Positions 1 to 54,309 of a DNA stretch of 54,410 nt are shown here, piece by piece. The notes beneath the pieces were generated by a model, which worked only from the letters and a program-made list of their open reading frames with translations, did not search any database and was not told the origin of the DNA. The number at the start of each line of letters is the position of its first letter. Positions within the stretch are counted from its first letter, which is position 1. This DNA comes from Candidatus Peregrinibacteria bacterium CG10_big_fil_rev_8_21_14_0_10_49_10 (lineage in GTDB: Bacteria > Patescibacteriota > Gracilibacteria > Peribacterales > Peribacteraceae), in NCBI GenBank assembly GCA_002772545.1, contig PFDR01000015.1:1-54410 (forward strand), written 5' to 3'. A program made the translations under genes and the position numbers.

Positions 1-1987
<1,987 letters not shown>

Positions 1988-2070
1988 ACAGCTTAGGAAA
2001 AGAAGTTACCCTAAGAGTTCTTCTGCATCTTTGCAATAAAAATGGCATCTAAAAGGTCTATACTATCGAT

Positions 2071-2120
2071 CTAGTCTTCGTCCCCTGTGTCTCCAATGTG
2101 ATCCTTAAAGGTATAGATGC
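2071..2120 (-). repeat. Degenerate duplicate of the hisS 3' end (partner at 2711-2760)
   Basis: Ungapped alignment at an offset of exactly 640 bp gives 37/50 identities, including 13 consecutive matches (tctccaatgtgatc core). Read on the minus strand it gives SIYTFKDHIGDTGDED-stop, against the real HisS tail DTYTINDHIGEGVDED-stop. Confidence 0.7.
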
Positions 2121-2626
2121 TTCTTTTGGAGCCTTCTTATTCCATACAGTAAGAGATTAATGGAAAAACAGGCAACAAAGACTACGACAAACTGAAACCA
2201 GTAGAACAAAAATATCCAGCCTCCTTCACCATGTATCTGAACGATGTATGCCCATAGCAAAGTAAGAAAAAAGTTTAGGACAATGTATGAGGCAGGAATC
2301 ATCAAGCTATTTATGAATTGCTTTGGATGTTTCCATAGATATCTTGTGCTGGCAAATATGACCAATGCGGGCATTCCAAACAACAAAATCATTTCCAGTC
2401 GAAAGGATTCGTTGTACCGTGTATACGGAACGTTTTCCAGCGAAAATTCACTGATTGTTTTTGTAACCATGAAAGTGAAAACAATAAGGCTTAGACCAAT
2501 AATAGGTCCTCGTAATTCTTTCTCCTTTGATATTTTTCTATACAAGTACATACAGAAAACAATTCCTAATATAAAAGGAAATGCATAGAGCAATACCGCC
2601 AAAAAATTGGATTTAGTTACATCCAT
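2105..2626 (-). CDS. Polytopic membrane protein of unknown function
   Basis: The ORF has about 5 hydrophobic helices (e.g. FLAVLLYAFPFILGIVFCMYL, IIGLSLIVFTFMV, FVVVFVACFSINLLLYGI). The ATG at 2626 is preferred over the TTG at 2641. The gene lies between the two hisS 3'-end copies. Confidence 0.6.
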   Translation of the reverse strand: MDVTKSNFLAVLLYAFPFILGIVFCMYLYRKISKEKELRGPIIGLSLIVFTFMVTKTISEFSLENVPYTRYNESFRLEMILLFGMPALVIFASTRYLWKHPKQFINSLMIPASYIVLNFFLTLLWAYIVQIHGEGGWIFLFYWFQFVVVFVACFSINLLLYGIRRLQKKHLYL

Positions 2627-2710
2627 GATGAGTAATGCCAAAAAATTGGATCTGCTTACAACTATGTAAACATTCTACCAATTTATTGTTGGATTGAGTA
2701 TACCTTCTTT

Positions 2711-5927: not shown

Positions 5928-8552
5928 TTATTCTCCATCTTTCTCCTGTAGAGGAATCTCCCCGGAGTCCTGCAGTTTTTGCTGATCTAAACTGTCTGCA
6001 CTAATGAGAAACTGTACATCATCATCTCCTTCCTGCTTCGCAGCCGCATTGGATGGTGTTTCCTGTGGGGGAATAGGGGTGCCCTTGAGCCATTCAGGCG
6101 GAGGAGCTTCTGGTTTTTTGGCTGCGGGAGCGGATGGTGTTTTTTCTTGAGGTACGGGTTTTGATTCTGCGGCAACAGATGTTTGTTCTTTGGGGGCAGG
6201 AGCAGGTGCAGCAGCCGGTGCAGAATTCTGTCCATTTGCTTTTTCCTCTTGTTCGCGCTTGCGCTTATTTTCTCTATAGCGTTGGCGCTTGCGGCGTTTG
6301 CGTTCCTGTTCGCGCTCTTCTCTGGTCTTATCACCATTTACTTGGACTGGAGCTTTAGATGTTACAGGAGCGGGTGTGGATTCCTTCTGCTTCTCTACCG
6401 GTACCCGTGCAGAAGAGGCAGGTCCGACAACAGTTGCTGGCTCTTCAGCTTTTTCTGCCGGTTTCTGTGGTGCCTTTGAAACTTCAGATGTTGTACCGGC
6501 AAGTGATGCTGCGGGTGCAGGTTTATCTGCAGTTTTCTCCGTGCTGCCCGCAAGCCATGGTGGGAGTGCAGCGTCATCCTTGGGAGGTGTGGTTTTTACA
6601 GGTGCCTCCTGTTTAGTTGGTTCTGTAACGGCTGGAGGAATCTTTTCCGAAGGAGCAGTCTCTTTTACTGCAGGTGCAGGTGGGGGCGGAGGTGGTGGTG
6701 GCGTCTGTTCTGTTTTCTGACTTGTACCGGCGAGCCACGCTGGGAGAGGTGGCTCCTGCTTCTTTTCTGCTGAAGTAGACTCTTTTGGCGTAGCAATGGT
6801 TTCTTTTTTCTCCGGAGCAGAAGTTTCGTTTGGCGCCTCTGGTGCTACAGGTTCCTGCGCGGACTCTGCAGTTTGGCTTTTCTGCACGCTAGATGAGGGG
6901 GCGAGCCAGGAAGGCATTTCTTTCTGTGCACCAGTCGTAGTTTCTTTCTTTTCTGTTGTGGGCGCAGCCGGAGTGGTCGTAGAACTGCCTTGCAACCAGG
7001 AAGGGACACTTGTGGGTTCCGATTGAGTGGGCGTTTCCGTTGGGCCTGCGGAGGCAACGGGCTTCAAAGGTTCCTGCGGAGGAGCAGGTGTTTCCTTTGG
7101 TGCCGTTTCTGCTGTACTTGGTGAGGGGGCCAACCAGCTGGGAACCTGGCGATTTACTTCGGGCGTTTCCGGTGCGGGAGATGCCTGTTCAGAGTCGTCT
7201 GCAGGTTTGGTGTTTTCTGCTGTTTCTTCCTTCTTTTCTTCGTTTGCATCCAGATCTGTATCCGCATCTTCATTTTTTGTGTCTGCCTTGTCTTCCTCTT
7301 TGTCCTCTTTCTTCAGTTCCATGAGAGGGAGTGCGGTGGTGCTCTCCGGAGAGTCACCAACCAATTTTTTCTCTGCAGCCTCAAGAGACTTCTGCAGATT
7401 CATCCCTTTTAGTTTTGAAACTACAAATACCACAAGCATTCCTATACCCAGTGACACAGCGAGTACCACCAGAGCCTTAAGAATCGTTTTCATCAGAGAG
7501 CCTCCTGCTTTTGTGTCGCCTTCGGGTTTCTGTTTCCCATCATTTTTTCCTGCATCTGTCGTGGGTGCCTTGTCACTGTTTTTTACGGAAACTTCCTTCT
7601 CCAGCTCAAGGAGTTTTGCGCCCGATCGGGCATCTGTAATACGCACTTGTACGTTGTAGGTTTGTTCCGTGGGGAAGGTATGTGTAGGTTCGTCCAGCAG
7701 GCTCTGTGTACCGTCTCCGAAGTTCCAGTAGTACAATGCCGGTACGGCAATAAGACCGGAACCGGTGCGTACCGCAAATGCGTATGTACCATCTCCACGG
7801 GGTTCAACAGTCAAGCCTGTTTTTGCTCTTTGCTCCTGCGCTTCTCTGAGGGCTTTTTGCACATACAGCTGAGAAACTACATCTATCTGCTGCGTTATAA
7901 GCGCACCGTTTTTTAGGCGTGCCGCTATGAGCATGGTCTGTTTTTCCAGTGTAGGTTTGAGCCAAATATGCAGGCTGCCCCGTCCCTGCGCAAAAATACT
8001 GTTTGCCAAAATGTTGTCATTGTAGGTATCGCCATCACCATTCAGGTCTTCTGCAATATTGATGTCCATGGCGAGTTGTTCAATATCTGCATGAATGATG
8101 TCCAGACGAATGAGTCGTTCTCCTCCCTCCAGTTGAATGCTGCCCTCTGCGTTTAGGGCCGGGGATGTTTTTACAATCTGAGGAGTTTCCTTTGTGGATT
8201 GCGTAATGAGAGGAGCATCGTTACTTGTTTGTATACGAAAGATGGTGCGTACCGATCCTTCTTCTTTCTCTACAACTTCGCCGTTTAAGAAGTACTCCGC
8301 TATTTCGGTGGGACGCATGCTAAAGAGTACGGATCTCTTTGCCTGCTCAAATGTGCGTCCTTTGCTCAGAACCCAGTTTACTGCGGCAGAGGGTGTGCTC
8401 TCCGCATAAATTTCAAAGATGCTGCCGGGCCTGAGTGCAAGGGTTTCCTGAATACTCGTTATTTCCTGCGCTCTCACAGAACTGGCTATGCCCAGTGGAA
8501 GCACGAGGAGTGCTGCGAGAACAAAACCAGGGGAGAGAATGCGTTTCAACAT
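5928..8552 (-). CDS. Large single-pass surface protein: signal peptide, ectodomain with a PKD domain, TM helix, and a ~490-aa disordered Pro/Lys/Glu/Thr-rich tail with six PxWL motifs
   Basis: The likely start is MLKRILSPGFVLAALLVLPLGIASSVRAQE (ATG at 8552, 22 nt after the upstream gene). The PKD signature is YYWNFGDGTQS...HTFPTEQTYNVQVRITD. An EF-hand/dockerin-like loop DLNGDGDTYNDN is present. The TM helix is ILKALVVLAVSLGIGMLVVFVV. The tail motifs are VPSWLAPS, VPSWLQGS, MPSWLAPS, LPAWLAGT, LPPWLAGS and PPEWLKGT. Confidence 0.85.
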   Translation of the reverse strand: MLKRILSPGFVLAALLVLPLGIASSVRAQEITSIQETLALRPGSIFEIYAESTPSAAVNWVLSKGRTFEQAKRSVLFSMRPTEIAEYFLNGEVVEKEEGSVRTIFRIQTSNDAPLITQSTKETPQIVKTSPALNAEGSIQLEGGERLIRLDIIHADIEQLAMDINIAEDLNGDGDTYNDNILANSIFAQGRGSLHIWLKPTLEKQTMLIAARLKNGALITQQIDVVSQLYVQKALREAQEQRAKTGLTVEPRGDGTYAFAVRTGSGLIAVPALYYWNFGDGTQSLLDEPTHTFPTEQTYNVQVRITDARSGAKLLELEKEVSVKNSDKAPTTDAGKNDGKQKPEGDTKAGGSLMKTILKALVVLAVSLGIGMLVVFVVSKLKGMNLQKSLEAAEKKLVGDSPESTTALPLMELKKEDKEEDKADTKNEDADTDLDANEEKKEETAENTKPADDSEQASPAPETPEVNRQVPSWLAPSPSTAETAPKETPAPPQEPLKPVASAGPTETPTQSEPTSVPSWLQGSSTTTPAAPTTEKKETTTGAQKEMPSWLAPSSSVQKSQTAESAQEPVAPEAPNETSAPEKKETIATPKESTSAEKKQEPPLPAWLAGTSQKTEQTPPPPPPPPAPAVKETAPSEKIPPAVTEPTKQEAPVKTTPPKDDAALPPWLAGSTEKTADKPAPAASLAGTTSEVSKAPQKPAEKAEEPATVVGPASSARVPVEKQKESTPAPVTSKAPVQVNGDKTREEREQERKRRKRQRYRENKRKREQEEKANGQNSAPAAAPAPAPKEQTSVAAESKPVPQEKTPSAPAAKKPEAPPPEWLKGTPIPPQETPSNAAAKQEGDDDVQFLISADSLDQQKLQDSGEIPLQEKDGE

Positions 8553-8574
8553 TGCAGAGAGGTTGTGTGAGCGT

Positions 8575-8949
8575 TTAGTTCGGAAGATTTGCCATAAATT
8601 GCACAATACCCTGTGCAAGCAGAATGATGATCAGACCGATAACAGCGTAGAAAATAATGCGCTTTGCCCTGTCCTTTGCCTCTTCCTCGCCGCCACTGAA
8701 CACCATGAGAATACCCGCAATGACAATTACCACTACAGCCGCAAGTGCCATGAACGAAAGTACTGTTTTGATGATGGTAACCACTCTTTCTCGAATAGTT
8801 GCCCGTCCTACAATGTTTCCTGCTTCACTGGCGCCTGCGCCCAGTCCACCACCTCCGTAGACCGCAGCCTGCACAGCTGTAGAAGTTGTACCGAGTGAGA
8901 CAAGAAGTGCCGTAAGGGTAGGAGAGATTCTGCTGAGAAGACGTTTCAT
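8575..8949 (-). CDS. Small secreted two-TM protein, T4SS pilin-like (TrbC/VirB2-type family common in CPR bacteria)
   Basis: 124 aa. It has a signal peptide (LTALLVSLGTTSTAVQA), a short ectodomain and then two TM helices separated by SGGEEEAKDRAKR. The layout ...AGILMVFSGG..E..ak..i..aviGLiIilLA..IV.F matches the T4SS-pilin architecture as I remember it. Confidence 0.6.
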   Translation of the reverse strand: MKRLLSRISPTLTALLVSLGTTSTAVQAAVYGGGGLGAGASEAGNIVGRATIRERVVTIIKTVLSFMALAAVVVIVIAGILMVFSGGEEEAKDRAKRIIFYAVIGLIIILLAQGIVQFMANLPN

Positions 8950-10273: not shown

Positions 10274-11644
10274 TTGAACACACACATGAACATTCCACGT
10301 CGCATCTTTCTCACGTTGGCACTTGTGCTACTCATCTGTCCTGTGCGGGCGGGGAGTAACCGTGAGCCGTATGAGCAGGAGTTTCTCATTACGGCGTATT
10401 ACTCGCCGCTGCCCGGACAGTGCTGCTATGTGAAAGGCGGGTACGAGGCCGATAAAGTACTGAACGGGGAAGGCAAGCAGGCCTCCGACGGCACGGCGGT
10501 GTACCCCGGCATGCTGGCAGCTCCTGCCAGTTATCCCTACGGCACTAAAGTGGATTTGCCCGGCATTGGTGTGCTCACTGTGCATGATAGAGGTGGAGCA
10601 ATTCAGGAACTGCAGAGCGGTATGCATCGCCTGGATGTATGGGTGGGTTATGGAGAGGAGGGCCTTGCACGCGCACTGGAATTCGGTTTGCAGCATGTGC
10701 GTGGTACGGTTTACCCACCAGGTTTTCACCAGCCGCAAACGCATCTGGCACTGGAAAATCTCCCGGCACCCTTAGGGCGGCTGGAGAGTTACAAACTGTC
10801 GTATTTCGGTTTGTTGGCATTGCGTGCCCAGAAGGACGACCAGAGTCTCTCTGTACGTATGCTCCAGGAGCAGCTGAAGGACATGGGTTATTTCCGCCAT
10901 CCCATCACGGGTTTGTATGGTGAGGTGACTCAGCAGGCACTGGCACACTTTTTGCAGGACTATCATCTCAGTGAACCCACAGATGAGCTCACAGCTGAAA
11001 CAGCTGCGTTCCTCCTTTCTGCGGCACATCGCAAAGGTGTTGCCAATCCCATTCAGGAATACGTAGATGCGGAGAGCCAACCGGAAACTCTGCGTGAAGC
11101 ACAGCGTATATTGCGATTTTTAGGCTACTACCGAGGCAGAACAGATGGTCTGTACACAGAAGCGCTTGCCGATGCCATCCTCCGTTTTCAGCAGGAGAAT
11201 TTTCTGGTCGGCACACAGGATGATCCCGGAGCAGGTCGCATTGGTCCGCTGACCATGCAGCAAATTCGTGGAGCTTGGGACCGCAAACTCGTTGCAGAAC
11301 GTGCAGAGAAATTCATGCTCCTTCATGACGTGGTCGTGCACATTGATGCGGCAAATTTGTCCGTGGAACAGTTTCTTTCGGAAGGGGATAACGGTTCCCA
11401 GGTCAGACGTTTGCAGTCGCTTCTTGCAGAAGGTGGATACTTTCCCAAAAAGATGATCAACGGAAACTACGGGCCGCTTACAGCGGATGCAGTTTTGCAG
11501 TACCAACTTGCACGGAACATTCTTCATTCTCCGCAGGAACACGGTGCCGGCGTGGTGGGTCCTGCAACTCTTACATTGCTTCGCAAAGAGCAGAGTCGTG
11601 CGTTGTATCAGTTGGTAAGGGCAGAGGGAAGGCAGGCACTCTAA
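10274..11644 (+). CDS. Secreted cell-wall enzyme: 3D (MltA-like) domain followed by three peptidoglycan-binding (PG_binding_1-type) repeats
   Basis: A signal peptide is present (IFLTLALVLLICPVRA). The 3D domain reads ITAYYSPLPGQ...DGTAVYPGMLAAP..YPYGTKVDLPGIGVLTVHDRGGAI...LDVWVG. The three repeats follow the pattern vr.LQ..L...GYf....tG.yg..T..Al..FQ. The start is either the TTG at 10274 or the ATG at 10286. Confidence 0.85.
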   Translation: MNTHMNIPRRIFLTLALVLLICPVRAGSNREPYEQEFLITAYYSPLPGQCCYVKGGYEADKVLNGEGKQASDGTAVYPGMLAAPASYPYGTKVDLPGIGVLTVHDRGGAIQELQSGMHRLDVWVGYGEEGLARALEFGLQHVRGTVYPPGFHQPQTHLALENLPAPLGRLESYKLSYFGLLALRAQKDDQSLSVRMLQEQLKDMGYFRHPITGLYGEVTQQALAHFLQDYHLSEPTDELTAETAAFLLSAAHRKGVANPIQEYVDAESQPETLREAQRILRFLGYYRGRTDGLYTEALADAILRFQQENFLVGTQDDPGAGRIGPLTMQQIRGAWDRKLVAERAEKFMLLHDVVVHIDAANLSVEQFLSEGDNGSQVRRLQSLLAEGGYFPKKMINGNYGPLTADAVLQYQLARNILHSPQEHGAGVVGPATLTLLRKEQSRALYQLVRAEGRQAL

Positions 11645-11650
11645 AGTCAA

Positions 11651-12733
11651 TTGCACTTCTGTCTCGGGACTTGCACTCTATACTCGGTGAAGTCGCTTAC
11701 CCTTTTTTTGCTGGCATGCATGTTCCCCTGTTCTGCCTTTGCAAGCGGTCCACTTAGCCGTCGTGATGGGTTTTTGCTTATTTGGGATTCCATTCGTCGC
11801 CCCGTCTACGAGACGTCTGTGCAACCTTTTACAGATGTTTCTGAGGGTGAGGAGGGGTATACGGAAATTACCTACGCCAAGGGAAGAAAGTTTTTTGATG
11901 AGGGTATGACTCATTTTCGTCCCGATGATCCACTGACCCAGGAAGATGCACTCATCTGGATCTTTCGTTCCAGAAACGTGGTTGAGCGACCCTCCATAGA
12001 GCGTTCCGATATCCACCGTCTCCTGGAGCGTTATCCCATTGCAGATTTCCGTGGAGATGCCAACACGCAGACGCGGGAAGAAGTTCTGGATCTCCTCATG
12101 GCGCTGGATACTCTTCTTATAGAAGAGGTGCATACAGTGAGCTACTACGCCGATGATTTCCATGGGAAAACAACGGCATTCGGAGAAAAATTCGATATGG
12201 AAGACTTCACTGCGGCACATCGCAGTTTTCCGGAAGATACGCTTGTACAGGTCACAAATGTGGAGAACAGGAAAAGTGTAACCGTGCGTGTGAATGACCG
12301 TGGGCCCTATGTGGAGGGTCGGGACATGGATTTAAGCAGGGCTGCATTTGAAAAAATTGCGCCCATTTCACAAGGCGTGCTCCATGCTACCTTTCGTCGC
12401 CTCGGAGATGTGGATCTCGTCGGCGAGTGCGAGGATGTCCCCCGTACCTATCAGCGACGTATAACACGGGATGTACGTTTTCACCGTGGTATTCCACATA
12501 CTTTTTCCCTGGGAGAAACGCTCTTCCTGGGGTCAAACAGGTACTTTGTTGTGCGTGGTATTACATTCCCGGACGGCGCGAGCATCCGGGTACAGGATTT
12601 TGTAGGCCCCCGTGAGCGTTTCCAGTTCACACCTTCTGTTACGGGCGAGTATCGCTTTCTTGTAGGTACTGTGCAGGGGAACCAGCGGGAGATGGTGATG
12701 TCTGTCTCTTCCTGTTCTCGTGAGCCATCGTAA
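11651..12733 (+). CDS. RlpA-like double-psi beta-barrel (lytic transglycosylase-type) secreted protein
   Basis: The RlpA/DPBB signature is YYADDFHGKTTAFGEKFDMEDFTAAHRSFPEDTLVQVTNVENRKSVTVRVNDRGPYVEGRDMDLSRAAFEKIA. The N-terminal signal is LTLFLLACMFPCSAFA. The start may be the GTG at 11687. Confidence 0.8.
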   Translation: MHFCLGTCTLYSVKSLTLFLLACMFPCSAFASGPLSRRDGFLLIWDSIRRPVYETSVQPFTDVSEGEEGYTEITYAKGRKFFDEGMTHFRPDDPLTQEDALIWIFRSRNVVERPSIERSDIHRLLERYPIADFRGDANTQTREEVLDLLMALDTLLIEEVHTVSYYADDFHGKTTAFGEKFDMEDFTAAHRSFPEDTLVQVTNVENRKSVTVRVNDRGPYVEGRDMDLSRAAFEKIAPISQGVLHATFRRLGDVDLVGECEDVPRTYQRRITRDVRFHRGIPHTFSLGETLFLGSNRYFVVRGITFPDGASIRVQDFVGPRERFQFTPSVTGEYRFLVGTVQGNQREMVMSVSSCSREPS

Positions 12734-12899
12734 TGCTCCAGATGCAGATCCAAAAGTTGCCTGGACCGCCTATCCAAATTCAAAAAGCGGATACCACCTA
12801 TGACCCGTTCCTACAACGCGAACTGCTACCCCCAATGGGAAAAATATGCTACAATACAGCGATTTCTTGCTATTCTTTCCCTAACTCTCTCTTCTCTCC

Positions 12900-15512
12900 G
12901 TGGGTGCATTCCTTGCCTTCTTCTTCTGGCCTATTGCTCTAGGCATTCTCGCTCTGCTCACGAGTATTGTGAATGCAGCTATCTGGGGCCAGCTCCTTGG
13001 TTTTTTCATTTCCAATCCTCTGGAAGGGGTCTTGTGGGTGGTGACCATCTACTGTCTGTGGAGAGCCATAAAGAAGTATTTCCGTCTCTACTACGCTTTG
13101 CGGCAGTCAAAGAACTTGGTCGCTTACAAAGTCATCCAGCCCCGCAGTGATAGCAAAGTGGACCAGGAGAAACGTACAGATAAAGACTTCAAAGAGAAGA
13201 TGGCTGTAATGGAGCAGCTCTACCGCGCACTCTGGGAGGTTCGCAGTTTGACCATTTGGCAGTCACTCCATTTCTGGTTGTTTCGCAACATCATCATCAG
13301 CATGGAGCTTTGTTTAGAAAAAGGAGAACTGATGTTTTACATCGTCACACAACCGAGGTTTGCTTCTATTGTAGAAAAACAGATTACGGCCTTTTATCCC
13401 GATGCAGAAGTATTTCCGGAAGAAGTGCCGGACATTTGGCCGAAGGGCAAACAGCTTGTGGGGTATAACATGGCTCTCAAGCGGCCCTTCATGTACCCCA
13501 TCCGTTCCTACGAACAGATGCAAGATGATCCGCTCAATGGCATTGCAAACGTACTCAGTAAACTGAAGGAAGACGAAAAAGCTGCCATTCAAATGGTGAT
13601 GACTCCCTCTTTTTCCAACAAGTGGGGGAGGCAGGCAAAGGAGCAGGCATCTCTCAAATTTAAAGGCAAGAAGGAGAATTTGTTCAGTGGTATTCCCGGA
13701 CTTTCCATCGTGGGCTACATCTTCAGTATGTTTGCCACCAGTTCCACTGGTTCCACCTCCGCTCCCGGTGCGAGCAAGGGGGATGCATTCATTCGTATGA
13801 TTCAACCGGAGGAAGAGCTCTACAAACGCATGGGAGAAAAAGGCGGTATGAGTTTTTATCACTGCAATATTCGTTTGCTCGCTTCCGCCGGAACCTGGGA
13901 GAGGGCACTGGAAATTACGAATAACATGCAGGTGGCCTTTAATGCTTTTAAAGACCTGTACGGAAACTTCTTTGTAAACAAGCGCATGCTGTGTGAATTT
14001 ATGCCACTCAAGTGGAATGCACCGCTCATTTACAAACTCTGGAAGCGCAGATTGAATGGCTACTTCAGCCCCCGTTGCATGCTGGTAGAGAAGGAACTAG
14101 CCGGCCTCTACCACTTCCCGGATAGCCGCTACAACAAAATCCCCATTATTCAGTGGAGTTCGTACAAGGTGCTTCCGCCTCCGCCGGATGCTCCTGTAGA
14201 AGGCATACTGCTTGGCAACAACAAGTTCCGGGGTGTGGAGACACCCATTCGTTTCATGGGTACGGACCGCACACGTCATCACTACATCATCGGTAAATCC
14301 GGTTCCGGTAAATCCGCACTGCTCAGCTGGATGTCGCGCCAGGATATCGCAAATGGTGACGGGGTGTGCCTGGTAGATCCTCATGGGGATCTGGTCGAAG
14401 ATGCACTGGCACACACGCCAAAATCCCGTGCAAAAGAGGTCATCGTATTCGATCCTTCGGATACAAACAGGCCCATGGGTTTGAACATGCTGGAAGCCAC
14501 AACTCCCGAAGAAAAAGACCGGGCGGCTCTGGATGCCATGGAAATCTTTATTAAACTTTTCGGTAATGAAATCTTCGGTCCCCGCATTCAGCATTACTTC
14601 CGTAACGGCTGTCTTACACTCATGGATGATGAAGAGGAGGGTGCTACACTCATCGATGTTCCGCGATTGTTTGTAGATGACGAGTTCCAGCGCTACAAGG
14701 TGAGTAAAATTCGCAATCCGGTTGTACGCAGTTTCTGGGACCATGAAATGGCACAAACCGGCGATAGAGAAAAGCAGGAAATGATTCCGTACTTCAGTTC
14801 CAAATTTGGTCCATTCATTACGAACACGACCATGCGTAACATTATTGGCCAGCCAAAAAGCGCATTCAATATCCGTGAAGTCATGGATTCCAAAAAGGTA
14901 CTGTTGGTCAACCTCTCCAAGGGAAAGATCGGCGATACGAATGCGGAACTTTTGGGCCTTATTTTTGTGAATAAAATCAGTATGGCAGCTATGAGCCGTG
15001 CAGATGTTCCCCGGGCAGATCGTAAACGTTTCTACCTCTACGTGGACGAATTCCAGAACTTTGTCACGGACGCATTTGCCACTATTCTTTCCGAGGCGCG
15101 CAAATACGAACTTGCACTGGTTATGGCGCACCAGTATATAGGCCAGCTTGTGGGCAAAACATCTGCCTACGGGGATTCAAGCACCAAAATGCGCGATGCT
15201 GTATTTGGTAACGTCGGTACCATCATGAGTTTTAAAATCGGTGCGGAGGATGCCGAGTACATGGCCAAGGAATTTGCCCCTATTCTCTCGGAGCAGGACG
15301 TTATCGGTATTCCAAACTTCAACTGTTACTGCAAACTGAATATCAATAATGTGCAGTCCCGCCCATTCAGTATGTCCACCATATGGGATGAGTCCGACCG
15401 TAACGAAGAACTGGCAAAACTCGTAAAGGAATACAGCAGACTCAAGTTTGCCCGTAAAAAAGTATTCGTGGATCAGGAAATTGAAGACAGAATTGGTATT
15501 AACCATGCATAG
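12900..15512 (+). CDS. Membrane-anchored P-loop ATPase of the FtsK/HerA superfamily, VirD4/TraG-VirB4-like (T4SS-type)
   Basis: 870 aa with a GTG start. There are two N-terminal TM helices. Walker A is HHYIIGKSGSGKSALL and is followed by VCLVDPHGDL...NRPMGLNMLE. Walker B and the TraG-D_C-like block read RFYLYVDEFQNFVTDAFATILSEARKYELALVMAHQYIGQL. Confidence 0.85.
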   Translation: MGAFLAFFFWPIALGILALLTSIVNAAIWGQLLGFFISNPLEGVLWVVTIYCLWRAIKKYFRLYYALRQSKNLVAYKVIQPRSDSKVDQEKRTDKDFKEKMAVMEQLYRALWEVRSLTIWQSLHFWLFRNIIISMELCLEKGELMFYIVTQPRFASIVEKQITAFYPDAEVFPEEVPDIWPKGKQLVGYNMALKRPFMYPIRSYEQMQDDPLNGIANVLSKLKEDEKAAIQMVMTPSFSNKWGRQAKEQASLKFKGKKENLFSGIPGLSIVGYIFSMFATSSTGSTSAPGASKGDAFIRMIQPEEELYKRMGEKGGMSFYHCNIRLLASAGTWERALEITNNMQVAFNAFKDLYGNFFVNKRMLCEFMPLKWNAPLIYKLWKRRLNGYFSPRCMLVEKELAGLYHFPDSRYNKIPIIQWSSYKVLPPPPDAPVEGILLGNNKFRGVETPIRFMGTDRTRHHYIIGKSGSGKSALLSWMSRQDIANGDGVCLVDPHGDLVEDALAHTPKSRAKEVIVFDPSDTNRPMGLNMLEATTPEEKDRAALDAMEIFIKLFGNEIFGPRIQHYFRNGCLTLMDDEEEGATLIDVPRLFVDDEFQRYKVSKIRNPVVRSFWDHEMAQTGDREKQEMIPYFSSKFGPFITNTTMRNIIGQPKSAFNIREVMDSKKVLLVNLSKGKIGDTNAELLGLIFVNKISMAAMSRADVPRADRKRFYLYVDEFQNFVTDAFATILSEARKYELALVMAHQYIGQLVGKTSAYGDSSTKMRDAVFGNVGTIMSFKIGAEDAEYMAKEFAPILSEQDVIGIPNFNCYCKLNINNVQSRPFSMSTIWDESDRNEELAKLVKEYSRLKFARKKVFVDQEIEDRIGINHA

Positions 15513-47280: not shown

Positions 47281-47838
47281 TTAGAGACCGGTCGGAAGCG
47301 CGCCGGTCTGGCTGTTCGCGTAAGCTGCCTCCTTATGGAGTACACCAGTTGCCTGCCTGCTGGCTACCAGTATTCCACCGGCATCGGTCGCCTCCGGAGT
47401 CGACTTGTGGTAATCACTAGCAATAGCATGCTCAGTGTTTTGGCCGGAGTCGGTTCGATGCTGCACAACGGTGCCGTTGTAGGTTGCCGTTGTGAGCGTC
47501 GGTGGAGCCGTGATGGTATCCGCATTCTCTGTGGATGCTGTCACGGTCGCTTGCCCGGTGTCGTATAAAGCATTCGTCTGCGCTTTCATAACGACATGTT
47601 CACCACTCATCGTACCTTCCGTAGTAGACAGGCCTGTCGCTTGATCGTAGACAGTGGCCACGTCGACTTTGTACTGCGCTTCACTCGTAATGGGCGTTGC
47701 CAAGCTGGGCTGCCCACTGTCCGTCGTCACCGCAGCTTGCGGTGTGGTCGTTACATCGTGCGATCCATACTGCACGAAACCGATCGAGAGTACCGCGATA
47801 ACTGCTAGCGCGGCTGTAAAAAACCTGAACTGCTTCAT
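47281..47838 (-). CDS. Secreted or anchored Thr-rich protein of unknown function (185 aa)
   Basis: The start MKQFRFFTAALAVIAVLSIGF (ATG at 47838) is preceded by GGAGAG with 7-nt spacing. The N-terminal signal or anchor helix is followed by Thr/Ala/Gln-rich sequence. Confidence 0.62.
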   Translation of the reverse strand: MKQFRFFTAALAVIAVLSIGFVQYGSHDVTTTPQAAVTTDSGQPSLATPITSEAQYKVDVATVYDQATGLSTTEGTMSGEHVVMKAQTNALYDTGQATVTASTENADTITAPPTLTTATYNGTVVQHRTDSGQNTEHAIASDYHKSTPEATDAGGILVASRQATGVLHKEAAYANSQTGALPTGL

Positions 47839-48373
47839 TGGATTTCTCTCCGTTGAAGTTATGGAAACGTACGTACGTACACAGTGGCTCTCAGACCATT
47901 CTAAGGGACTCACATACTCGAGCCATCTGTCTGTTCCGGAAAGTTCAGACAGATTGTACCAAAGCCCCTCTCTGCACCCAATTTCCTTTCTAAGTAGCAG
48001 GCCAAACGTAATAAACGAACATATAGAGCACAACAGTATTTCCTTTAAAGCGGTTTACATTCGACTTTTGTTTCGCCGGTACTAAAACTCCTGTACGAAA
48101 AAGAAACACAATTGTGCCCTACATGCCTGTATTCTCTAAATCTCTGGAACCCATGGTGTAAAAGAACACCGGGCTTTCGCCCACAAAAGGGCAAAAGGTT
48201 ATACGAAAGTTAACCGCTGAGTCGCGTTGTGTCAATCCCTGAGGGAAAACTCGTCTGGAAAATTATTTAAAGAAATAATGGAGATTTTGTCAATTTTTCA
48301 CCAGAATATCGGGCAGAGCACATTTGTGCTTTGTTGTGGATTTTTTGTTCTTTTAATCCATAGAAGGAGGTGG

Positions 48374-49408
48374 ATGATGACTTCATCTACGAGTTCAGAT
48401 CTTGCTACAGTTTCACTCTCGAATTTTGCTGATGAGATGACTCCAGATTTTCGGGGTCAGATTACTTCCACATTAGCTCTTGGCATGCGCAGCATGAGCA
48501 TCCGTTCCGGGGATGTCCTTGGTACCGGAGAGTCCAAAAATGTCATGCTCTGGTCGCAAGATGAGCTGAAGAAGGCGCAGCAGATGCTTACAAGCAGCGG
48601 TGTCTTTATCGCAGAGGTGGGTTCTCCTATTGGCAAGGTCAAACTTGTAGACGTGGAGGACGGCACAAAAAACCGTTTCGTGCCTTTTCAAAGGTATCTT
48701 GATGAGGATGTGAGACGTGCACTGGATCTTGCTGGTTTCTTTGGTTGCAACAGGTTGCGTGGTTTCAGCTTCTACCCACCAAAAGGGTCGAATCCTGATG
48801 ATTACTTTAACCAGGCAGCCGACCAGGTTGCAGCTATCGTGCAACTGTGTGCTGCCCGCAGGATTCTGTACGGTTGTGAAGTCGAGGCAAATCTGGTGGG
48901 GGACAGGGCCGAACGTCTCATGCGCCTACGTGAACATGTAGGTAGCCCATGGTTCCGACTGGTTTTTGATCCGGCGAACATCACGTGCCAGAACCTGAAG
49001 GAGGTGGCCGCAATGGACTTTAAGGCGTTACGCTTTCTGCTGGGTTGGTTCCATGCCAAGGAGTATAAGGTAGATCCAAATGTCACGTGGAAAGGTCACG
49101 TGGATGAAGAAACGCTCAAGAACTTTGTTCCTCTGGGCTACGGGAATAGTGGCTATGACCAGATTGTTTATTCTCTGGCGCGAGCTCTGCCCACTCTGCA
49201 TACCGATCTGAACGCATTGGACATACCCAGTTTCCTCATAACCCTCGAGCCGCATTTGCGGCGTGGGGGACAGTTTGGAGGCTACACCGGGCCCGATGGT
49301 ATGCGTGTTGCTCTGCAGGCACTGCTTACGGTTCTTGCGACGCATAACATTGAAACCGACCTCATTCAATGGGAAGAAGTAAAACGCACACCGGAATTTA
49401 GGATCTAA
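48374..49408 (+). CDS. Xylose-isomerase-like TIM-barrel protein (sugar phosphate isomerase/epimerase family)
   Basis: An AGGAGG Shine-Dalgarno lies 4 nt upstream of the ATG at 48374. The pattern of beta-strand-end residues (..RGFSFYPP.., ..YGCEVEANLV.., ..RLVFDPANI.., ..WFHAKEY.., ..ITLEPH) is typical of this fold. Confidence 0.75.
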   Translation: MMTSSTSSDLATVSLSNFADEMTPDFRGQITSTLALGMRSMSIRSGDVLGTGESKNVMLWSQDELKKAQQMLTSSGVFIAEVGSPIGKVKLVDVEDGTKNRFVPFQRYLDEDVRRALDLAGFFGCNRLRGFSFYPPKGSNPDDYFNQAADQVAAIVQLCAARRILYGCEVEANLVGDRAERLMRLREHVGSPWFRLVFDPANITCQNLKEVAAMDFKALRFLLGWFHAKEYKVDPNVTWKGHVDEETLKNFVPLGYGNSGYDQIVYSLARALPTLHTDLNALDIPSFLITLEPHLRRGGQFGGYTGPDGMRVALQALLTVLATHNIETDLIQWEEVKRTPEFRI

Positions 49409-49433
49409 TCCGGAGAAGGTACAAATCCACAAC

Positions 49434-49471
49434 AACCCGTTGCTTGCGCAAGTAAGCAGCGGGTTTTGTTG
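49434..49471. terminator. Rho-independent terminator between convergent genes
   Basis: A 12-bp stem (cccgttgcttgc / gtaagcagcggg, with two G-U wobble pairs) closes a GCAA tetraloop. It is followed by ttttgttg. Confidence 0.7.
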
Positions 49472-49514
49472 TACACCAAAAAATTGGACTCTTCTCTTCC
49501 AGGAAATTCCTCCA

Positions 49515-50264
49515 CTACAGTGCTACGCCCACTATGTTTCTGAGGAGTACGCCTATGCCGTAGGCAACCAATGCTCCCACTGCACCTATACTTATGACTT
49601 CTATGGGTCCCCGTAGCAGGCGTTCTCTGGTAATGATGCTGCGTGTAAAGCCAAGAATCGTGAGTGCCACAGCTGTAGAGGCAATGGCAATAGGAAAGCG
49701 CCGGGCAGGTTCTATGGTAAAGAGGTAGGGGAGGAGAGGAATGCTACCAAACATCACAAACGAACAGAAGGTAAATATGCCGCTTCGAATGGGGTTTTCA
49801 TAGGAGCTTTCAGTCATGCCGTGCTCACTCTGCATCATAATGTCCGCCCAGAGTTCACGGTGCGACGTAATGGCGGCGGTCACTGTTTCCAGTTTTTCAC
49901 CTGTGATTCCTTTTTCCCTTAGGTACTCACGAATTTCCTCGCGTTCAATCTCCGGTATGTTCTCTATTTCTTCCAGCTCTTCTTTGCGGAGTCGACGGTA
50001 CTGGTCGAGCTCGGATTTCATAGAAAGGTAGGCTCCGGTTGCCATGGAAGTTCCGTCTGCAAACAGGTTGGCAAGTCCTAAAATGATAATGACGTAGCGG
50101 GGCATATCTGCACCCACGGTTCCTGCAACCACGGCAAAGGTAGTCACAATGCCATCGTTTCCTCCATACACAATATCCTGAATATGGGAACCCAGTCGGT
50201 TGCCGTGTTTTTCTTCCTGTTGGTGCTTGCGGAGTGCCTTCTGCAGATTCTCCTGTTGTTCCAT
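49515..50264 (-). CDS. VIT1/CCC1-family iron/manganese transporter
   Basis: The VIT signature is [26 protein letters not shown] cytoplasmic metal-binding helical region rich in Glu ([21 protein letters not shown]) and C-terminal TM helices are present. The start is the ATG at 50264. Confidence 0.88.
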
Positions 50265-50382
50265 GCTTTTAGAGTACCAAAGACCTTTGACTGCCGATAG
50301 AGATTGTGTTGAATACAAAATTTGTTCAAAAAAATCGGTTCAGTTTCAGCAAGAAACCATCTCTCAGTTGTATACGTTCTGG

Positions 50383-51366
50383 CTATGCTACTTTGTAGAC
50401 CTGTGGTGCCCTGCGTGCAATTCTCCAGATGAAAAAGAGGCTCAGACTCAGTACTGCCCACAGACCCGGACCGGTACGGGGCTGACTGAAAGGTTTCTGG
50501 ATTTCACGGCCGAGGGTGCCGTTGAGTGGAGCTACAGATCCTGCAAGTTGTGCAGGAGCTGCAGGTGGTCTGCCCGTTGTATCAAATGCAAAATTGTTTG
50601 TGTTACCCACGGTGTAGGGGTTGCTCGGCAAATTCGCAAGGTTGACCGGAGCGGGAGTGCTCGGAGATGCAGTGGTTTGTGCTCCTCCTGTCACATTGTC
50701 TGTTTCGAGCTGTTTGCGTATGGAGTTTAGCAGTGACTGCTGTGCAACGGATATCACCTCCATATTTTCATCGGGATTTCCGGCCATAAGGTCAAAGGTG
50801 TCTATGGGGTTTTCTTTGCTACCCGCAAGAGGCGCGCCTGCTGGTGTGGTACTTACTTCTGTTCCAGGAATCGGGTCACCTGCAACGGTAATGGTACCTA
50901 CCAGATTGGGATCTGTAGGAGAGAAGTACTCGTACTCTCCGGCAGGAATGTTCCCGGGGATGGTGTAGCTGGCACTGTCACCCTGAAACATAGTTGCGGT
51001 GCTCAAACAATCATCTGCAGGTGTACAGAGGGTATCGGAGATAATGTACTGCGGTACAGCCAGTTCATTGTTCCACGTCACTGTTTCACCGGGTGCAGCG
51101 GTTACGGCCTTAGGTGAGAAACCCTTATCTGTAATGCGAATGCTTGATCCGGTACTGAGCTGTCCACGCAGATCCTGCACGCCGTGGAAAAAAAAGGTCG
51201 TTATTCCAACCACCAGCAGTATGCCCATGATGGCTGCCGGTTTCCGGGAGACAGGTTTTGTGTTGAGCGGTGCCTGTGTGTGTGCTTCCTGTTTATGCAC
51301 AGCGGCATGTACCGGGACCTCTTCTTCATCTGTGCTATGCCAATTGGGGTGAATGTCTTCGTTCAT
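50383..51366 (-). CDS. Membrane-anchored cupredoxin-like domain protein with a C-terminal sorting-signal-like tail
   Basis: An N-terminal TM helix is present. The cupredoxin pattern reads IRITDKGFSPKAVTAAPGETVTWNN....GEYEYFSPTDPNLVGTITV. The C-terminus is QPRTGPG, then a hydrophobic helix, then RIARR. Its ATG overlaps the stop of the upstream gene (ATGA at 51363-51366). Confidence 0.7.
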   Translation of the reverse strand: MNEDIHPNWHSTDEEEVPVHAAVHKQEAHTQAPLNTKPVSRKPAAIMGILLVVGITTFFFHGVQDLRGQLSTGSSIRITDKGFSPKAVTAAPGETVTWNNELAVPQYIISDTLCTPADDCLSTATMFQGDSASYTIPGNIPAGEYEYFSPTDPNLVGTITVAGDPIPGTEVSTTPAGAPLAGSKENPIDTFDLMAGNPDENMEVISVAQQSLLNSIRKQLETDNVTGGAQTTASPSTPAPVNLANLPSNPYTVGNTNNFAFDTTGRPPAAPAQLAGSVAPLNGTLGREIQKPFSQPRTGPGLWAVLSLSLFFIWRIARRAPQVYKVA

Positions 51367-52874
51367 GCAGAGGGTTGCTCAGTACAAACAGCCAATTGTC
51401 GTTTGGAAGCGAGAAATGTGCCTATGGCTGCGCAGAGCACAACCAGCATTGCCAGTGCGGAGGGCACCCCGGTGCTTCCCGGCACTGAAACAGCACCGTT
51501 TCCGGTAAGGTCTCCTATGGGATTTACTCCTCCGACTCCCTGCACAAGCGGTGCCGTAGAGGTAGCCGGATTACCAACTTCTACCGAAACTTCCGGGCTA
51601 AAGGCACTCTCTTCTTCGTCCGTATTTACGGCTCGAATAGCCAGGTAGTACGTTGCACCCAGCGGCAAGTTCCGTAGCACCACGCTCTGCATGTTTCCGC
51701 TGATGGTCTTGCGCTGAATGTATCTTCCGGATGTGGTGCCGTAGTAGATGTTGTACGCACTCAGAGAAGAGGAGTTCAGTGCATCCCACGCAAGAAAGAT
51801 GGAGCTTCCATCTGTGGTTACCCGCACATTGCGTACCTGCAGGAGTGCAAAGGCAGTGCGGTCGGCTCCCTGTGCCGGCGCTTGCTGCTGTACTGTTTCC
51901 CCCTCAGCACCACAGATGCCGTTCAGACAATTGTTGCTTCTGCAGTCACTGTTTTGCAGACAGGCATTGCCGTTCTCTACGGGACTAGGGGCATTTTCCT
52001 CGCTTGCAGAAGCAGAAGGAGCGGCAGTACCTCCAAGAAGATTATTTGCCACGGTGGGGTCTACCTCCGGTTGGTCGTTTCCTACATCTTCCAGCGGGAT
52101 GGGTGGGGGAGGGAGATCATCGGGAGAGAGACTGTCTCCTTCGTTTGCTACTGCACCCGATGCGGCCGGTTGCACATCAGCTCCCTCTCCTTCTCCAAAC
52201 AGCACATGCAAACCACCCGGCTCATCGCTGAGGAGTTCTTCGTCCGTGTCATTTTCTGTAGTGGTGACGGTCGTGTGGCCGTTGCGTTGTATGTCGTAGA
52301 AACTGATAAATGTGCCTGCGGCGGGCGCTATCTTGGCACGCAGTTGTACGCGTGCGACCGCAATGGTGCTCTTTGTATTGGCTCCATTCTCCTCGTTGGC
52401 TGCTTCTACCATGACGTATCCATTCTCTTCATCAAAGTCCGATTCACCGGGTGTGATAAGCGGGAAGTGTTCGGAAACCTCTATAGATACACCTTCAAAC
52501 ACATTGGTGTCGTATGCCAGCCATGCACGCACATGTTGCACGGCTTGCTTGGAGGGGTTTTGTACCACAATGTCAAAGTCCAGTGTGTCCCCCACAGCCA
52601 TGACTTTTGTTTTGAGTGTTTGGGGATCTTCTACCTGAAAGCTTGTGCAAATCTTTCCGTCACCCAATGTCACCATTTCTTCCAAGTCGGGTATGGGACC
52701 AAGCATGGTGTCTTCTTTCTCAGATTCAATCTGCTCGCAGTGCGGGCGAACGGTAAGCGAAACATCCTGCGTGGCTGCCTTCATGACCGTAGGGTTTGTA
52801 ACGGAGAAACCTACGAGAAGTACAAGTAGTTTTGCAGAGTGCTTGAGCCGGTTATGGCGTGTGTGTGAACCCAT
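51363..52874 (-). CDS. Surface protein: cohesin-like domain, acidic/Pro linker, Cys-knot motif, fibronectin type III domain, C-terminal anchor
   Basis: A signal peptide is present. The cohesin-like pattern is VGDTLDFDIVVQNPSKQAVQHVRAWLAYDTNVFEGVSIEV....ENGYVMVEAAN.....IAVARVQLRAKIAPAAGTFISF. The Cys motif is CLQNSDCRSNNCLNGIC. The FN3 region is VRVTTDGSSIFLAWDA....YNIYYGT....LPLGATYYLAIRAVN. The C-terminus is VPGSTG, then a TM helix, then KR. Confidence 0.75.
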   Translation of the reverse strand: MGSHTRHNRLKHSAKLLVLLVGFSVTNPTVMKAATQDVSLTVRPHCEQIESEKEDTMLGPIPDLEEMVTLGDGKICTSFQVEDPQTLKTKVMAVGDTLDFDIVVQNPSKQAVQHVRAWLAYDTNVFEGVSIEVSEHFPLITPGESDFDEENGYVMVEAANEENGANTKSTIAVARVQLRAKIAPAAGTFISFYDIQRNGHTTVTTTENDTDEELLSDEPGGLHVLFGEGEGADVQPAASGAVANEGDSLSPDDLPPPPIPLEDVGNDQPEVDPTVANNLLGGTAAPSASASEENAPSPVENGNACLQNSDCRSNNCLNGICGAEGETVQQQAPAQGADRTAFALLQVRNVRVTTDGSSIFLAWDALNSSSLSAYNIYYGTTSGRYIQRKTISGNMQSVVLRNLPLGATYYLAIRAVNTDEEESAFSPEVSVEVGNPATSTAPLVQGVGGVNPIGDLTGNGAVSVPGSTGVPSALAMLVVLCAAIGTFLASKRQLAVCTEQPSA

Positions 52875-52891
52875 GTCGTAATGGTCGTTCT

Positions 52892-53212
52892 TTACAGGGA
52901 AAGCTCCCTAAGGATGGCAATAGCATCATCCAAGGTGAGCAGACCGTCCTTATTGGGGTCGGCCTTAAGTTGCTCAGGGGTTGCCTGTACATATCCCCGT
53001 GCAATTTCCAGGATGATAATGGCATCCTGCACCGTGACTTTGCCGCTGCCATCCACGTCTCCGGGAAGTTGAATGCTTCCTGCTTGTATAAGAGAAACAG
53101 GTTGCATATCTCCCGCAGACCGGATGCCGAGCGAGAACGAGCTGACAACCGCAAGTGCCCCAAGAGAGAGCACATGCAGGTTCTGCCGTTTGAAAATGGA
53201 ATGAATGGACAT
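52892..53212 (-). CDS. Small secreted dockerin-only protein (signal peptide plus one type-I-like dockerin module)
   Basis: 106 aa. The two Ca-binding repeats are GDVDGSGKVTVQDAIIILEIARG and ADPNKDGLLTLDDAIAILREL, with the usual ~10-aa linker between them. Confidence 0.75.
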   Translation of the reverse strand: MSIHSIFKRQNLHVLSLGALAVVSSFSLGIRSAGDMQPVSLIQAGSIQLPGDVDGSGKVTVQDAIIILEIARGYVQATPEQLKADPNKDGLLTLDDAIAILRELSL

Positions 53213-53220
53213 TTCCTAGT

Positions 53221-53249
53221 AGTATAAAAGAAAAAGCCCTCTATCACAA
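53221..53249 (-). promoter_or_regulatory. Promoter of the dockerin/cohesin operon: TTGTGA, 17-nt spacer, TATACT, ending 8 nt before the ATG at 53212
   Basis: On the minus strand the -35 element is at 53244-53249 and the -10 element at 53221-53226. Confidence 0.45.
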
Positions 53250-53340
53250 TGCTGCAATCATTGACGTTCTACAGGAACATGATTGAATACCTTTTTTACA
53301 GACAGCATTCCAAACGTGGTTTACTGTATACTTCGCATCT

Positions 53341-54309
53341 ATGACACAGGTCCATATGCTTCTTGGGCAGAACAGTTATGCTCTTACGTTAGAGCGTCTC
53401 CGCTGGACGCGTGCATTTAAGGAAAAGCATGGAATAGAGAATCTAGCCTCTTTTCCCGCAAAGGAAGCTACATTTAGGCAATTGAGGGACGAAGTAAGTG
53501 TTGCTCCTTTTATAGCAGAAAAGCGCTTGATTGTAGTGGAAGGGGTACCAAAAGGGACCAAAGGAGAGGCCAAAGAGTTGGTGCAATCTATGCACCCGGA
53601 TGTTCTGTTGCTCTTTGTTCTGGAGTTAGATCCTACAAGAAAGGCGAAGTTGACAATTTTACAAAAAGAGATAAAAGAGCTTTCTCAGTGTATGGAGTTT
53701 CCGCTGCTTTCGCTCCCGAAGTTGCAACAGTGGATTCGCGAATCTGTAGCAGAACAGGGTGCCTCTATTACACAGAGTGCGTTACTTCTTCTCGTAGATT
53801 TAATAGGGGAGGACCAGTATCTCCTCAGCCAGGAGGTTCGTAAAATTGCCCTCTTTGCGCATGGAAGAGAAATACAGGAAGAGGATGTGCGTACCATGGT
53901 GGCCTGTTCTACAGAACGTGAAGTATGGAAGCTTATGGATTTTCTGGGTGCGGGGAACGTAGAAGAAGCCCTGCAGTACGTTCACAGTTTGCTCGAGAGG
54001 GGACTGAGTCCGCAGGCACTCTGGAGTACGTTTCTCTGGATGCTTTCACTCCTTGTACAGGTGGTCTCTTTGGTCGAGGAAGGGGAGACCAACGCCTGGA
54101 CTATTGCACGGGAACTCCATGCCTACGGGAGTTCCATACAGGCAATTTTGCCCTTTGCACGCAAGATGGATCGCGCCTTCCTCATCCGGATTTTGGATCA
54201 TGCGCTGGAAGCGGACAGAGGACTGAAAACCGGTGTGTATAAGGCAACGAGCGAAGCCCCTCAGGAACTCCTTGCACTCATCGATCGGTCTATTTTGTCT
54301 TTTGTGTAA
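53341..54309 (+). CDS. holA: DNA polymerase III subunit delta
   Basis: 322 aa. The N-terminal clamp-loader fold pattern (PFIAEKRLIVVEG...) and the central segment SALLLLVDLIGEDQYLLSQEVRKIALFA are typical of HolA. Confidence 0.82.
   Translation: MTQVHMLLGQNSYALTLERLRWTRAFKEKHGIENLASFPAKEATFRQLRDEVSVAPFIAEKRLIVVEGVPKGTKGEAKELVQSMHPDVLLLFVLELDPTRKAKLTILQKEIKELSQCMEFPLLSLPKLQQWIRESVAEQGASITQSALLLLVDLIGEDQYLLSQEVRKIALFAHGREIQEEDVRTMVACSTEREVWKLMDFLGAGNVEEALQYVHSLLERGLSPQALWSTFLWMLSLLVQVVSLVEEGETNAWTIARELHAYGSSIQAILPFARKMDRAFLIRILDHALEADRGLKTGVYKATSEAPQELLALIDRSILSFV

Follow-up and report, generated by a model that had tools for sequence, protein, structure and literature searches.

A candidate enzyme-free cohesin–dockerin cassette of the cell envelope in Peribacteria

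We describe here a three-gene cassette from an uncultured, groundwater-type bacterium of the class Peribacteria, a member of the candidate phyla radiation (CPR). The cassette lies within a 54,410-nucleotide stretch of contig PFDR01000015.1 (the window, by which we mean the whole of that stretch), and we call its genes g1, g2 and g3. The first gene encodes a hydrophobic helix followed by a single dockerin, the second a protein with a cohesin-fold domain, a Cys knot, an FN3 domain and a membrane tail, and the third a membrane protein with a cupredoxin domain that has lost its copper site. We propose that the three products contribute to a cohesin–dockerin assembly without enzymes on the outside of the membrane. 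We give this reading a probability of about 0.5.

The first-pass annotation of this DNA had described a three-gene unit, and the open reading frames (ORFs) agree with it. All three are on the minus strand (Table 1); the g2 ATG comes 17 nucleotides after the g1 stop, and the coding sequences of g2 and g3 share the four letters ATGA, through which g3 is predicted to be translationally coupled to g2. We found 118 homologues of g2 (E down to 1e-175), all of them from Peregrinibacteria/Peribacteria and none of them a natural g1–g2 fusion. Because of these homologues and the conserved gene order, we take g1, g2 and g3 to be real genes rather than chance ORFs. In a scan of one genome per GTDB species, 165 species-level genomes encoded a g2 relative. 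The synteny count is based on 80 loci taken from these genomes and on hidden Markov models (HMMs) built here. g1 stood directly upstream of g2 in 76 of the 77 loci with upstream sequence, and g3 directly downstream in all 78 loci with downstream sequence. The cassette genes are single-copy, and in relatives they are separated by gaps of 9-53 nucleotides or overlap by 4 or 8. Six gene-called loci had the order carB – greA – small ORF – holA (opposite strand) – g1 – g2 – g3, so housekeeping genes (holA, greA and carB) are neighbours of the cassette in every one; genes for VIT1 and a TPR protein often come after g3. Judged from sequence, the cassette appears to be a vertically inherited, syntenic trait of nearly all Peribacteria species examined, and g1-g2-g3 a tightly packed and conserved unit that is predicted to be co-transcribed.

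The g1 protein has the repeats of a dockerin. We defined a dockerin as two tandem repeats of about 22 residues, each a Ca loop plus a helix, with Ca ligands at loop positions 1, 3, 5, 9 and 12 (Pfam PF00404). Two such repeats are present in g1, with loops that read D52-V-D-G-S-G-K-V-T-V-Q-D63 and D85-P-N-K-D-G-L-L-T-L-D-D96; the two strings quoted in the first-pass annotation, GDVDGSGKVTVQDAIIILE and ADPNKDGLLTLDDAIAILRE, were both located in this protein. Residues D52, G57, D63, D85, D89, T93 and D96 are invariant among 22 relatives. The distance from loop to loop is 33 residues, and neither repeat has an entering helix. As dockerins are built of loop-plus-helix repeats without an entering helix, the layout of g1 matches dockerin architecture. 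When the g1 family profile was compared with the PDB, dockerins ranked first (2y3n_B, E 4.5e-6) and EF-hand calcium-binding proteins came after them. In Pfam, g1 scored 19.1 bits on Dockerin_1 (cut-off 22.9) and 22 bits on EF-hand_1, and 11 of the 22 relatives matched Dockerin_1 (E<=1e-3; best E 1.8e-7). One relative carries the NCBI name 'dockerin type I repeat-containing protein'. We found no further folded domain in g1, which thus appears to be a dockerin and nothing else, as had been claimed. An exhaustive search with the g1 family profile gave, among the 150 best matches listed, many single-stretch matches of about 90-125 residues that covered nearly the whole profile. This suggests that the stand-alone ‘helix plus dockerin’ protein is a sizeable family. 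The profile also matched unrelated multi-dockerin proteins, and the only named one among the matches listed was from Clostridia.

The first-pass annotation had made its case depend on a cohesin-type sandwich at the N terminus of g2, and the predicted structure has one. An AlphaFold2 model built on 99 sequences reached a predicted local distance difference test (pLDDT) score above 90 over residues ~80-230 and 345-435 and fell below 50 in the linker (233-295). We looked for the nine-stranded flattened beta-sandwich (jelly-roll) of cohesins, and the predicted model of g2 contains it. In a Foldseek search against the PDB, GH84C of C. perfringens came first, with its double module of cohesin and FN3 (2w1n, E 5.5e-12). 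The next matches were the type I cohesins 4ums, 5lxv, 3ul4, 1g1k, 1ohz and 1anu, with probability 1.00 and target TM-scores of 0.58-0.70. In Pfam, fn3 passed its cut-off, and Cohesin (PF00963) scored 23.0 bits over residues 89-202 (cut-off 24.1; E 9.5e-5). Among 99 relatives, 67 matched Cohesin (best E 3.4e-10) and 93 matched fn3 at E<=1e-3. A check with cohesin and dockerin models, which the first-pass annotation had suggested, thus divides: the two window proteins stay below the cut-offs, but their sub-threshold scores are borne out at the family level by the matches of their relatives. The FN3 domain and the C-terminal membrane tail that had been assigned to g2 are both present, the tail in essentially all 118 homologues. 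The spacing given for the Cys knot has to be corrected: its first interval is C-x5-C, not C-x6-C (Table 1). Some g2 relatives have one to several Cys-knot units (DUF4215 / DUF7107). A conserved pair within the cohesin domain, C46-C76, is probably a disulfide.

The cassette holds one cohesin and one dockerin without cargo. No glycoside hydrolase or carbohydrate-binding module (CBM) was found in the operon, in the 54-kb window or in the flanks of 88 related loci. A cellulosome, by which we mean a multi-cohesin scaffoldin with dockerin-bearing glycoside hydrolases and a CBM, is therefore ruled out, in agreement with the first-pass annotation. Across the window and 632 kb of related loci, we found no second g1-like dockerin and a single additional cohesin. 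That cohesin belongs to a single lineage (L057), where a lipobox-bearing (LLLSSC) cohesin-like ORF (E 9e-15 with the cohesin HMM built here) occupies the g1 position. Upstream of this ORF is a 924-residue DUF4625/Big_13 immunoglobulin (Ig)-repeat protein that ends in a single Ca-loop string, ADLNGDGGVNFEDF; both lie within 63-3378 (plus strand) of the L057 locus.

In our view, the dockerin of g1 most likely acts by binding the cohesin of g2. We infer this contact from the established function of the two modules, from the fact that the sole dockerin and the sole cohesin of the neighbourhood are strictly adjacent, and from the conservation of the Ca ligands and of cohesin residues on the predicted strands 3, 5 and 8. 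The most conserved cohesin residues in g2 include R116, W118, P142, E144 and F192. By the order of strands in the model, R116/W118, P142/E144 and F192 would lie on strands 3, 5 and 8, respectively. In canonical cohesins, the sheet that carries these strands contacts the dockerin.

Several results weigh against our proposal. In a mirror-tree analysis of 77 species, the partial correlation between dockerin and cohesin was 0.02, below that between cohesin and cupredoxin (0.33). Mutual information with average product correction gave a top dockerin–cohesin z of 5.6, compared with 5.8 and 6.8 for the dockerin–FN3 and dockerin–cupredoxin controls, and the top pairs reflect clade splits. The absent co-evolution signal could mean an invariant interface, too few sequences or no interaction. 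When the g2 family profile was run against PDB sequences, no solved cohesin was found at E<=0.01, and the cohesin and dockerin scores of the window proteins lie just below the Pfam gathering scores. The geometry is awkward for binding in cis, with the dockerin adjoining the membrane and the cohesin ~270 residues from the g2 anchor. The sequence S-A-G↓D after the g1 helix (the arrow marks the cut) fits the -3/-1 rule of signal peptidase, so cleavage is possible. Last, the L057 lineage has no g1, and a cohesin-like lipoprotein takes its place.

How the two proteins are held at the membrane can be judged from conservation, which we expressed as the mean fraction of sequences with the consensus residue and as column entropy in bits (78-84 sequences; Table 1). 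The g1 helix and the C-terminal transmembrane (TM) helix of g2 are as conserved as the folded domains, and thus they are probably retained membrane anchors rather than disposable targeting peptides. Residues F26, G29 and G34 in the helix region of g1 are invariant in 22 sequences. These results suggest that both helices are retained, functional membrane segments. The first-pass annotation had called the N terminus of g1 a signal peptide. An N-terminal hydrophobic helix is indeed present, but it is unusually conserved for a signal peptide and may be a retained anchor.

Table 1. Positions of the cassette genes and their features in the window, with the basis of each assignment and, for selected segments, sequence conservation
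Feature	Position	Strand	Basis	Consensus fraction	Entropy (bits)
Promoter-like site TTGTGA-17-TATACT just upstream of g1	53221..53249	-	lies in 128-nucleotide divergent spacer common to holA		
g1: 106-residue protein, N-terminal hydrophobic helix plus single dockerin	52892..53212	-	Pfam, family alignment, PDB profile matches		
g1 residues 11-33: hydrophobic helix ending R-S-A-G; signal-peptide h-region or, more likely, retained signal anchor	53114..53182	-	conservation	0.52	1.85
g1 residues 34-49: conserved juxtamembrane segment G(D/E)VQPxxLI(E/Q)AG	53066..53113	-	alignment		
g1 residues 50-104: predicted dockerin module, two Ca loops, helix after each	52901..53065	-	invariant ligands, PDB matches, Pfam		
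g2: 503-residue cohesin / Cys-knot / FN3 protein with C-terminal sorting-signal-like tail	51363..52874	-	Pfam, AlphaFold2, Foldseek		
g2 residues 1-34: ordinary, poorly conserved, cleavable signal peptide (…VMKA↓A)	52773..52874	-	alignment, conservation	0.27	3.04
g2 residues 36-232: cohesin-fold beta-sandwich with extra N-terminal strand	52179..52769	-	pLDDT, Foldseek, Pfam	0.50	2.07
g2 residues 233-295: acidic, Pro-rich disordered linker of variable length	51990..52178	-	pLDDT <50	0.23	
g2 residues 296-325: four-Cys knot C305-x5-C311-x4-C316-x4-C321	51900..51989	-	sequence, alignment, model		
g2 residues 340-435: FN3 domain, most conserved part of g2	51570..51857	-	fn3 31.4 bits; pLDDT >90; PDB fibronectin matches	0.69	1.25
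g2 residues 463-496: S-V-P-G-S-T-G plus TM helix plus K-R-Q (values for the TM helix)	51387..51488	-	alignment, conservation	0.65	1.39
g3: 327-residue membrane protein with copper-less cupredoxin domain	50383..51366	-	Pfam, model, Foldseek		
g3 residues 1-12: conserved N-terminal motif M-x-x-(D/N)-(I/L)-H-P-x-W	51331..51366	-	alignment		
g3 residues 46-68: first TM helix, after conserved string VSR(K/R)PAA (51229-51255)	51163..51231	-	alignment, model		
g3 residues 74-161: plastocyanin/amicyanin-fold domain	50884..51147	-	pLDDT >90; Foldseek		
g3 residues 290-320: Q-P-R-T-G-P plus second TM helix plus basic tail	50407..50499	-	alignment, model		

The third protein, g3, has an ectodomain with the Greek-key beta-sandwich of cupredoxins in its predicted model. 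In the model, a TM helix (42-70) precedes a confidently predicted beta-sandwich (74-161), which is followed by a long helix (198-225) and, at the C-terminal end, by a second TM helix (300-319). If the first TM helix runs N-in/C-out, the conserved N-terminal motif is cytoplasmic. Profile scores were low (18 bits on Pfam Cupredoxin_1; 27 bits for an NCBIfam plastocyanin match, far under its cut-off). In Foldseek, the domain matched plastocyanin and amicyanin at E 2e-9 to 1e-7, with TM-scores of ~0.7 and up to 33% identity; the top match was 3cvb (E 2e-9, TM-score 0.71, 33% identity). Unlike these proteins, the g3 domain contains no His, has Ser149 in place of the Cys ligand, lacks a Met in the ligand loop and is flanked by two TM helices. 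The ligand loop of plastocyanin reads Y-C-x-P-H-x4-M, and that of g3 reads Y-E-Y-F-S149-P-T-D-P-N-L-V-G, in which Y147 and S149 are invariant in the family. We found none of the type-1 copper ligands (His…Cys-x2-His-x4-Met) in residues 74-161. Thus, with no His and an invariant Ser at the position of the copper-binding Cys, g3 is unable to form a type-1 copper site, and a role as a blue-copper electron carrier is ruled out.

Two further observations touch on g3. The strongest inter-protein signals in the mutual information analysis tied g1 residues 41-45 (L-I-x-A-G, ~53078-53092) to the presence of the Cys114-Cys120 loop in the cupredoxin domain of g3 (~51007-51027), and z reached 6.8. Clade structure probably explains these signals, but they could also be a hint of contact between g1 and g3. 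In one relative (L001), a DsbB gene (11434-11883, plus strand) lies a few kb downstream of the cassette, which fits extracytoplasmic disulfides at g2 C46-C76, in the g2 Cys knot and at g3 C114-C120.

Based on these findings, we propose a model for the assembly. g1 would be inserted through its conserved N-terminal helix, which would place the Ca-binding dockerin ~16 residues above the membrane. g2 would be exported through its ordinary signal peptide and held by its C-terminal PGxTG + TM + RRQ tail. It would then display the FN3 domain, the Cys knot and, on a flexible linker of ~60 residues, a single cohesin. This cohesin would bind the g1 dockerin in a manner that is presumably Ca-dependent, either in cis, by folding back, or from one molecule to its neighbour. 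g3 would be held by its N-terminal TM helix and its QPxTG + TM tail, and it may join the complex as a constant third component, to which it would contribute a cupredoxin ectodomain without copper and, at its N terminus, a short conserved motif. The product may serve as a surface scaffold with a structural or an adhesive role, or it may tether the membrane to the wall.

One part of this model, the anchoring step, might work differently. The tails of g2 and g3 could be LPXTG-type sorting signals that are cleaved by a Peribacteria sortase, which would link both proteins to peptidoglycan and make g3 a covalent tether from membrane to wall. This reading concerns anchoring only and is compatible with cohesin–dockerin binding. 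Across both families, the tails combine a motif, a hydrophobic stretch and a basic tail, which is the three-part layout of LPXTG signals: the g2 tail is VPGSTG…KRQ here and VPGETG-x-PS…SAxIGTxFASRRQ in the family consensus, and the g3 tail is QPRTG…RR here with a family consensus of QPETGP. An unrelated 663-residue protein in a related locus (L016, 3-1991, minus strand) ends similarly, in PIGDTGP, a hydrophobic helix and RRKRK, so that this type of tail (xTG + TM + basic residues) may serve as a sorting signal in Peribacteria more generally. Sortase A has been reported in Peribacteria genomes (PMC4736985), and the single-cohesin protein ScaE of Ruminococcus flavefaciens is anchored by sortase (PMC2930009). 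However, the motif is non-canonical; the NCBIfam LPXTG model did not match the g2 and g3 tails, and among sorting-domain models only PEP-CTERM (15.9 bits, cut-off 16) and GPS-CTERM gave marginal scores. No sortase gene was found in the window. In addition, conservation is higher in the TM helix of g2 than in its cohesin, and such constraint would be uncommon in a part of the protein that is cleaved off and lost. We regard sortase anchoring as rather unlikely.

Two other alternatives concern the pairing itself. g2 may be a single-cohesin anchoring scaffoldin, like ScaE of R. flavefaciens, for clients encoded elsewhere, such as large Cys-rich extracellular proteins, and g1 a cleaved, soluble dockerin that caps, protects or regulates it; the first-pass annotation had already suggested a capping or regulatory ligand. 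Consistent with this, g1 has no domain besides its dockerin and has a cleavage-like site after its helix. Many large exported Cys-rich proteins are encoded in Peribacteria genomes (PMC4736985), the slot upstream of g2 in L057 holds an Ig-repeat protein with one Ca-loop string, and a promiscuous cohesin would fit the missing co-evolution signal. Yet the conservation of the g1 helix far exceeds that of a signal peptide that is cut off and lost, which favours a membrane-anchored partner over a soluble cap. The related loci and the window offer no other dockerin, and the near-absolute adjacency of g1 and g2 argues that g1 is a dedicated partner, so we hold this possibility to be unlikely. Still less probable, in our estimate, is that the two proteins do not pair at all: g1 would then be a small membrane-associated EF-hand-like Ca-binding protein and the cohesin fold of g2 a generic beta-sandwich spacer or adhesion module, and all three envelope proteins would be co-expressed but have separate roles. 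The EF-hand_1 score of g1, the EF-hand proteins among its PDB matches, the sub-threshold cohesin match in the window and the lack of co-evolution are what one would expect in that case. Against it stand the dockerin layout of the g1 repeats, with dockerins as top PDB matches, and a confidently predicted cohesin fold whose closest structures are canonical dockerin-binding cohesins. Moreover, without pairing it would be hard to explain why the neighbourhood has just one dockerin and one cohesin, encoded strictly side by side. We thus prefer the enzyme-free cohesin–dockerin assembly.

Parts of the cassette resemble known systems. An Archaeoglobus fulgidus pair and the toxin complexes of C. perfringens are examples of cohesin and dockerin modules outside cellulosomes. 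According to a survey by Peer et al. (2009, FEMS Microbiol Lett 291:1), as cited in PMC2930009, all three domains of life contain such non-cellulosomal modules. Like these, the cassette proteins come from an organism seemingly without cellulases, lack carbohydrate-active domains and presumably connect proteins to one another. Unlike them, they form a dedicated two-gene unit with a third gene, the order is fixed across a CPR class, and the dockerin protein consists of helix and dockerin only. The cohesin and FN3 domain of g2 follow each other in the same order as in GH84C (NagJ, 2w1n), whereas the GH84C modules are adjacent and part of a large glycoside hydrolase; g2 is enzyme-free, has a disordered linker and a Cys knot between the two and ends in a membrane tail. 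Similar to g2, ScaE combines a single cohesin with a C-terminal motif and a TM sorting signal, and it fixes dockerin-bearing partners to the surface (PMC2930009). However, ScaE has a canonical LPXTG and anchors the cellulosome via the dockerins of ScaB and CttA, whereas g2 has PGxTG and a conserved TM helix, no cellulosome, and as its only evident partner a dockerin without cargo. g1 shares with cellulosomal type I dockerins (2y3n_B, 4uyp_B, 1ohz_B) the two Ca loop–helix repeats, the conserved D or N at loop positions 1, 3, 5 and 12 that act as ligands, and a comparable distance between the loops, but its dockerin is without a catalytic or binding module and sits behind a conserved hydrophobic helix. 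Our literature search found no description of the cassette, and the Peribacteria genome paper mentions neither cohesin nor dockerin (PMC4736985). What is new is the package: a helix plus a cargo-less dockerin, a cohesin–Cys-knot–FN3 protein and a copper-less cupredoxin, fixed as a coupled cassette across a CPR class.

Some other features of the window deserve mention. The divergent holA gene is separated from g1 by a 128-nucleotide spacer, and 64 nucleotides separate g3 from the VIT1 transporter gene. The promoter-like site in the former (Table 1) is the sole sigma-70-like match in 49400-53450; as shuffled sequences yield ~3.4 such matches, it is weak evidence. A PKD protein (5928-8618, minus strand) had been offered in the first-pass annotation as a weak candidate for a second dockerin ligand. 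Its string DLNGDGDTYNDN is one isolated loop-like stretch, and with no match to Pfam dockerin or to the g1-family HMM this candidate is ruled out. Pfam recognises only a PKD domain in the protein, which continues with a TM helix (~residues 383-400) and a low-complexity tail of ~480 residues; the tail repeats P-x-W-L-(A/Q/K)-(P/G)-(S/T), as PSWLAPS, PSWLQGS, PAWLAGT, PPWLAGS and PEWLKGT. Three consecutive genes at 10274-15512 (plus strand) have as products a PG_binding_1 protein, a lytic-transglycosylase-like DPBB protein and an 870-residue TrwB/TraG-like coupling ATPase, and these could be a type IV secretion or DNA-transfer module. Two minus-strand ORFs, 47281-48033 (250 residues) and 2105-2641 (178 residues), had no Pfam match; in the former, a Thr/Ala-rich stretch of low complexity comes after a TM helix.

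To our knowledge, non-cellulosomal cohesin–dockerin pairs are widespread, yet almost none has been assigned a role. The cassette described here is unusually clean, with one cohesin, one cargo-less dockerin and a constant third gene, and this makes it a tractable model for a ‘bare’ pair. It also draws attention to a possibly lineage-specific C-terminal signal of the form xTG + TM + basic tail and to a conserved plastocyanin-fold domain minus its copper site. More speculatively, the cassette may encode a lineage-defining complex that tethers the membrane to the wall or S-layer in a Ca-dependent way, or that offers a platform for attachment, and that these ultra-small bacteria need for cell architecture or for contact with a host or partner; we think this improbable. 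The cassette is nevertheless a candidate for a core surface structure of this CPR lineage. If such a tether or platform exists, cohesin and dockerin would serve in these bacteria as a core structural element of the envelope rather than as an accessory organiser of enzymes.

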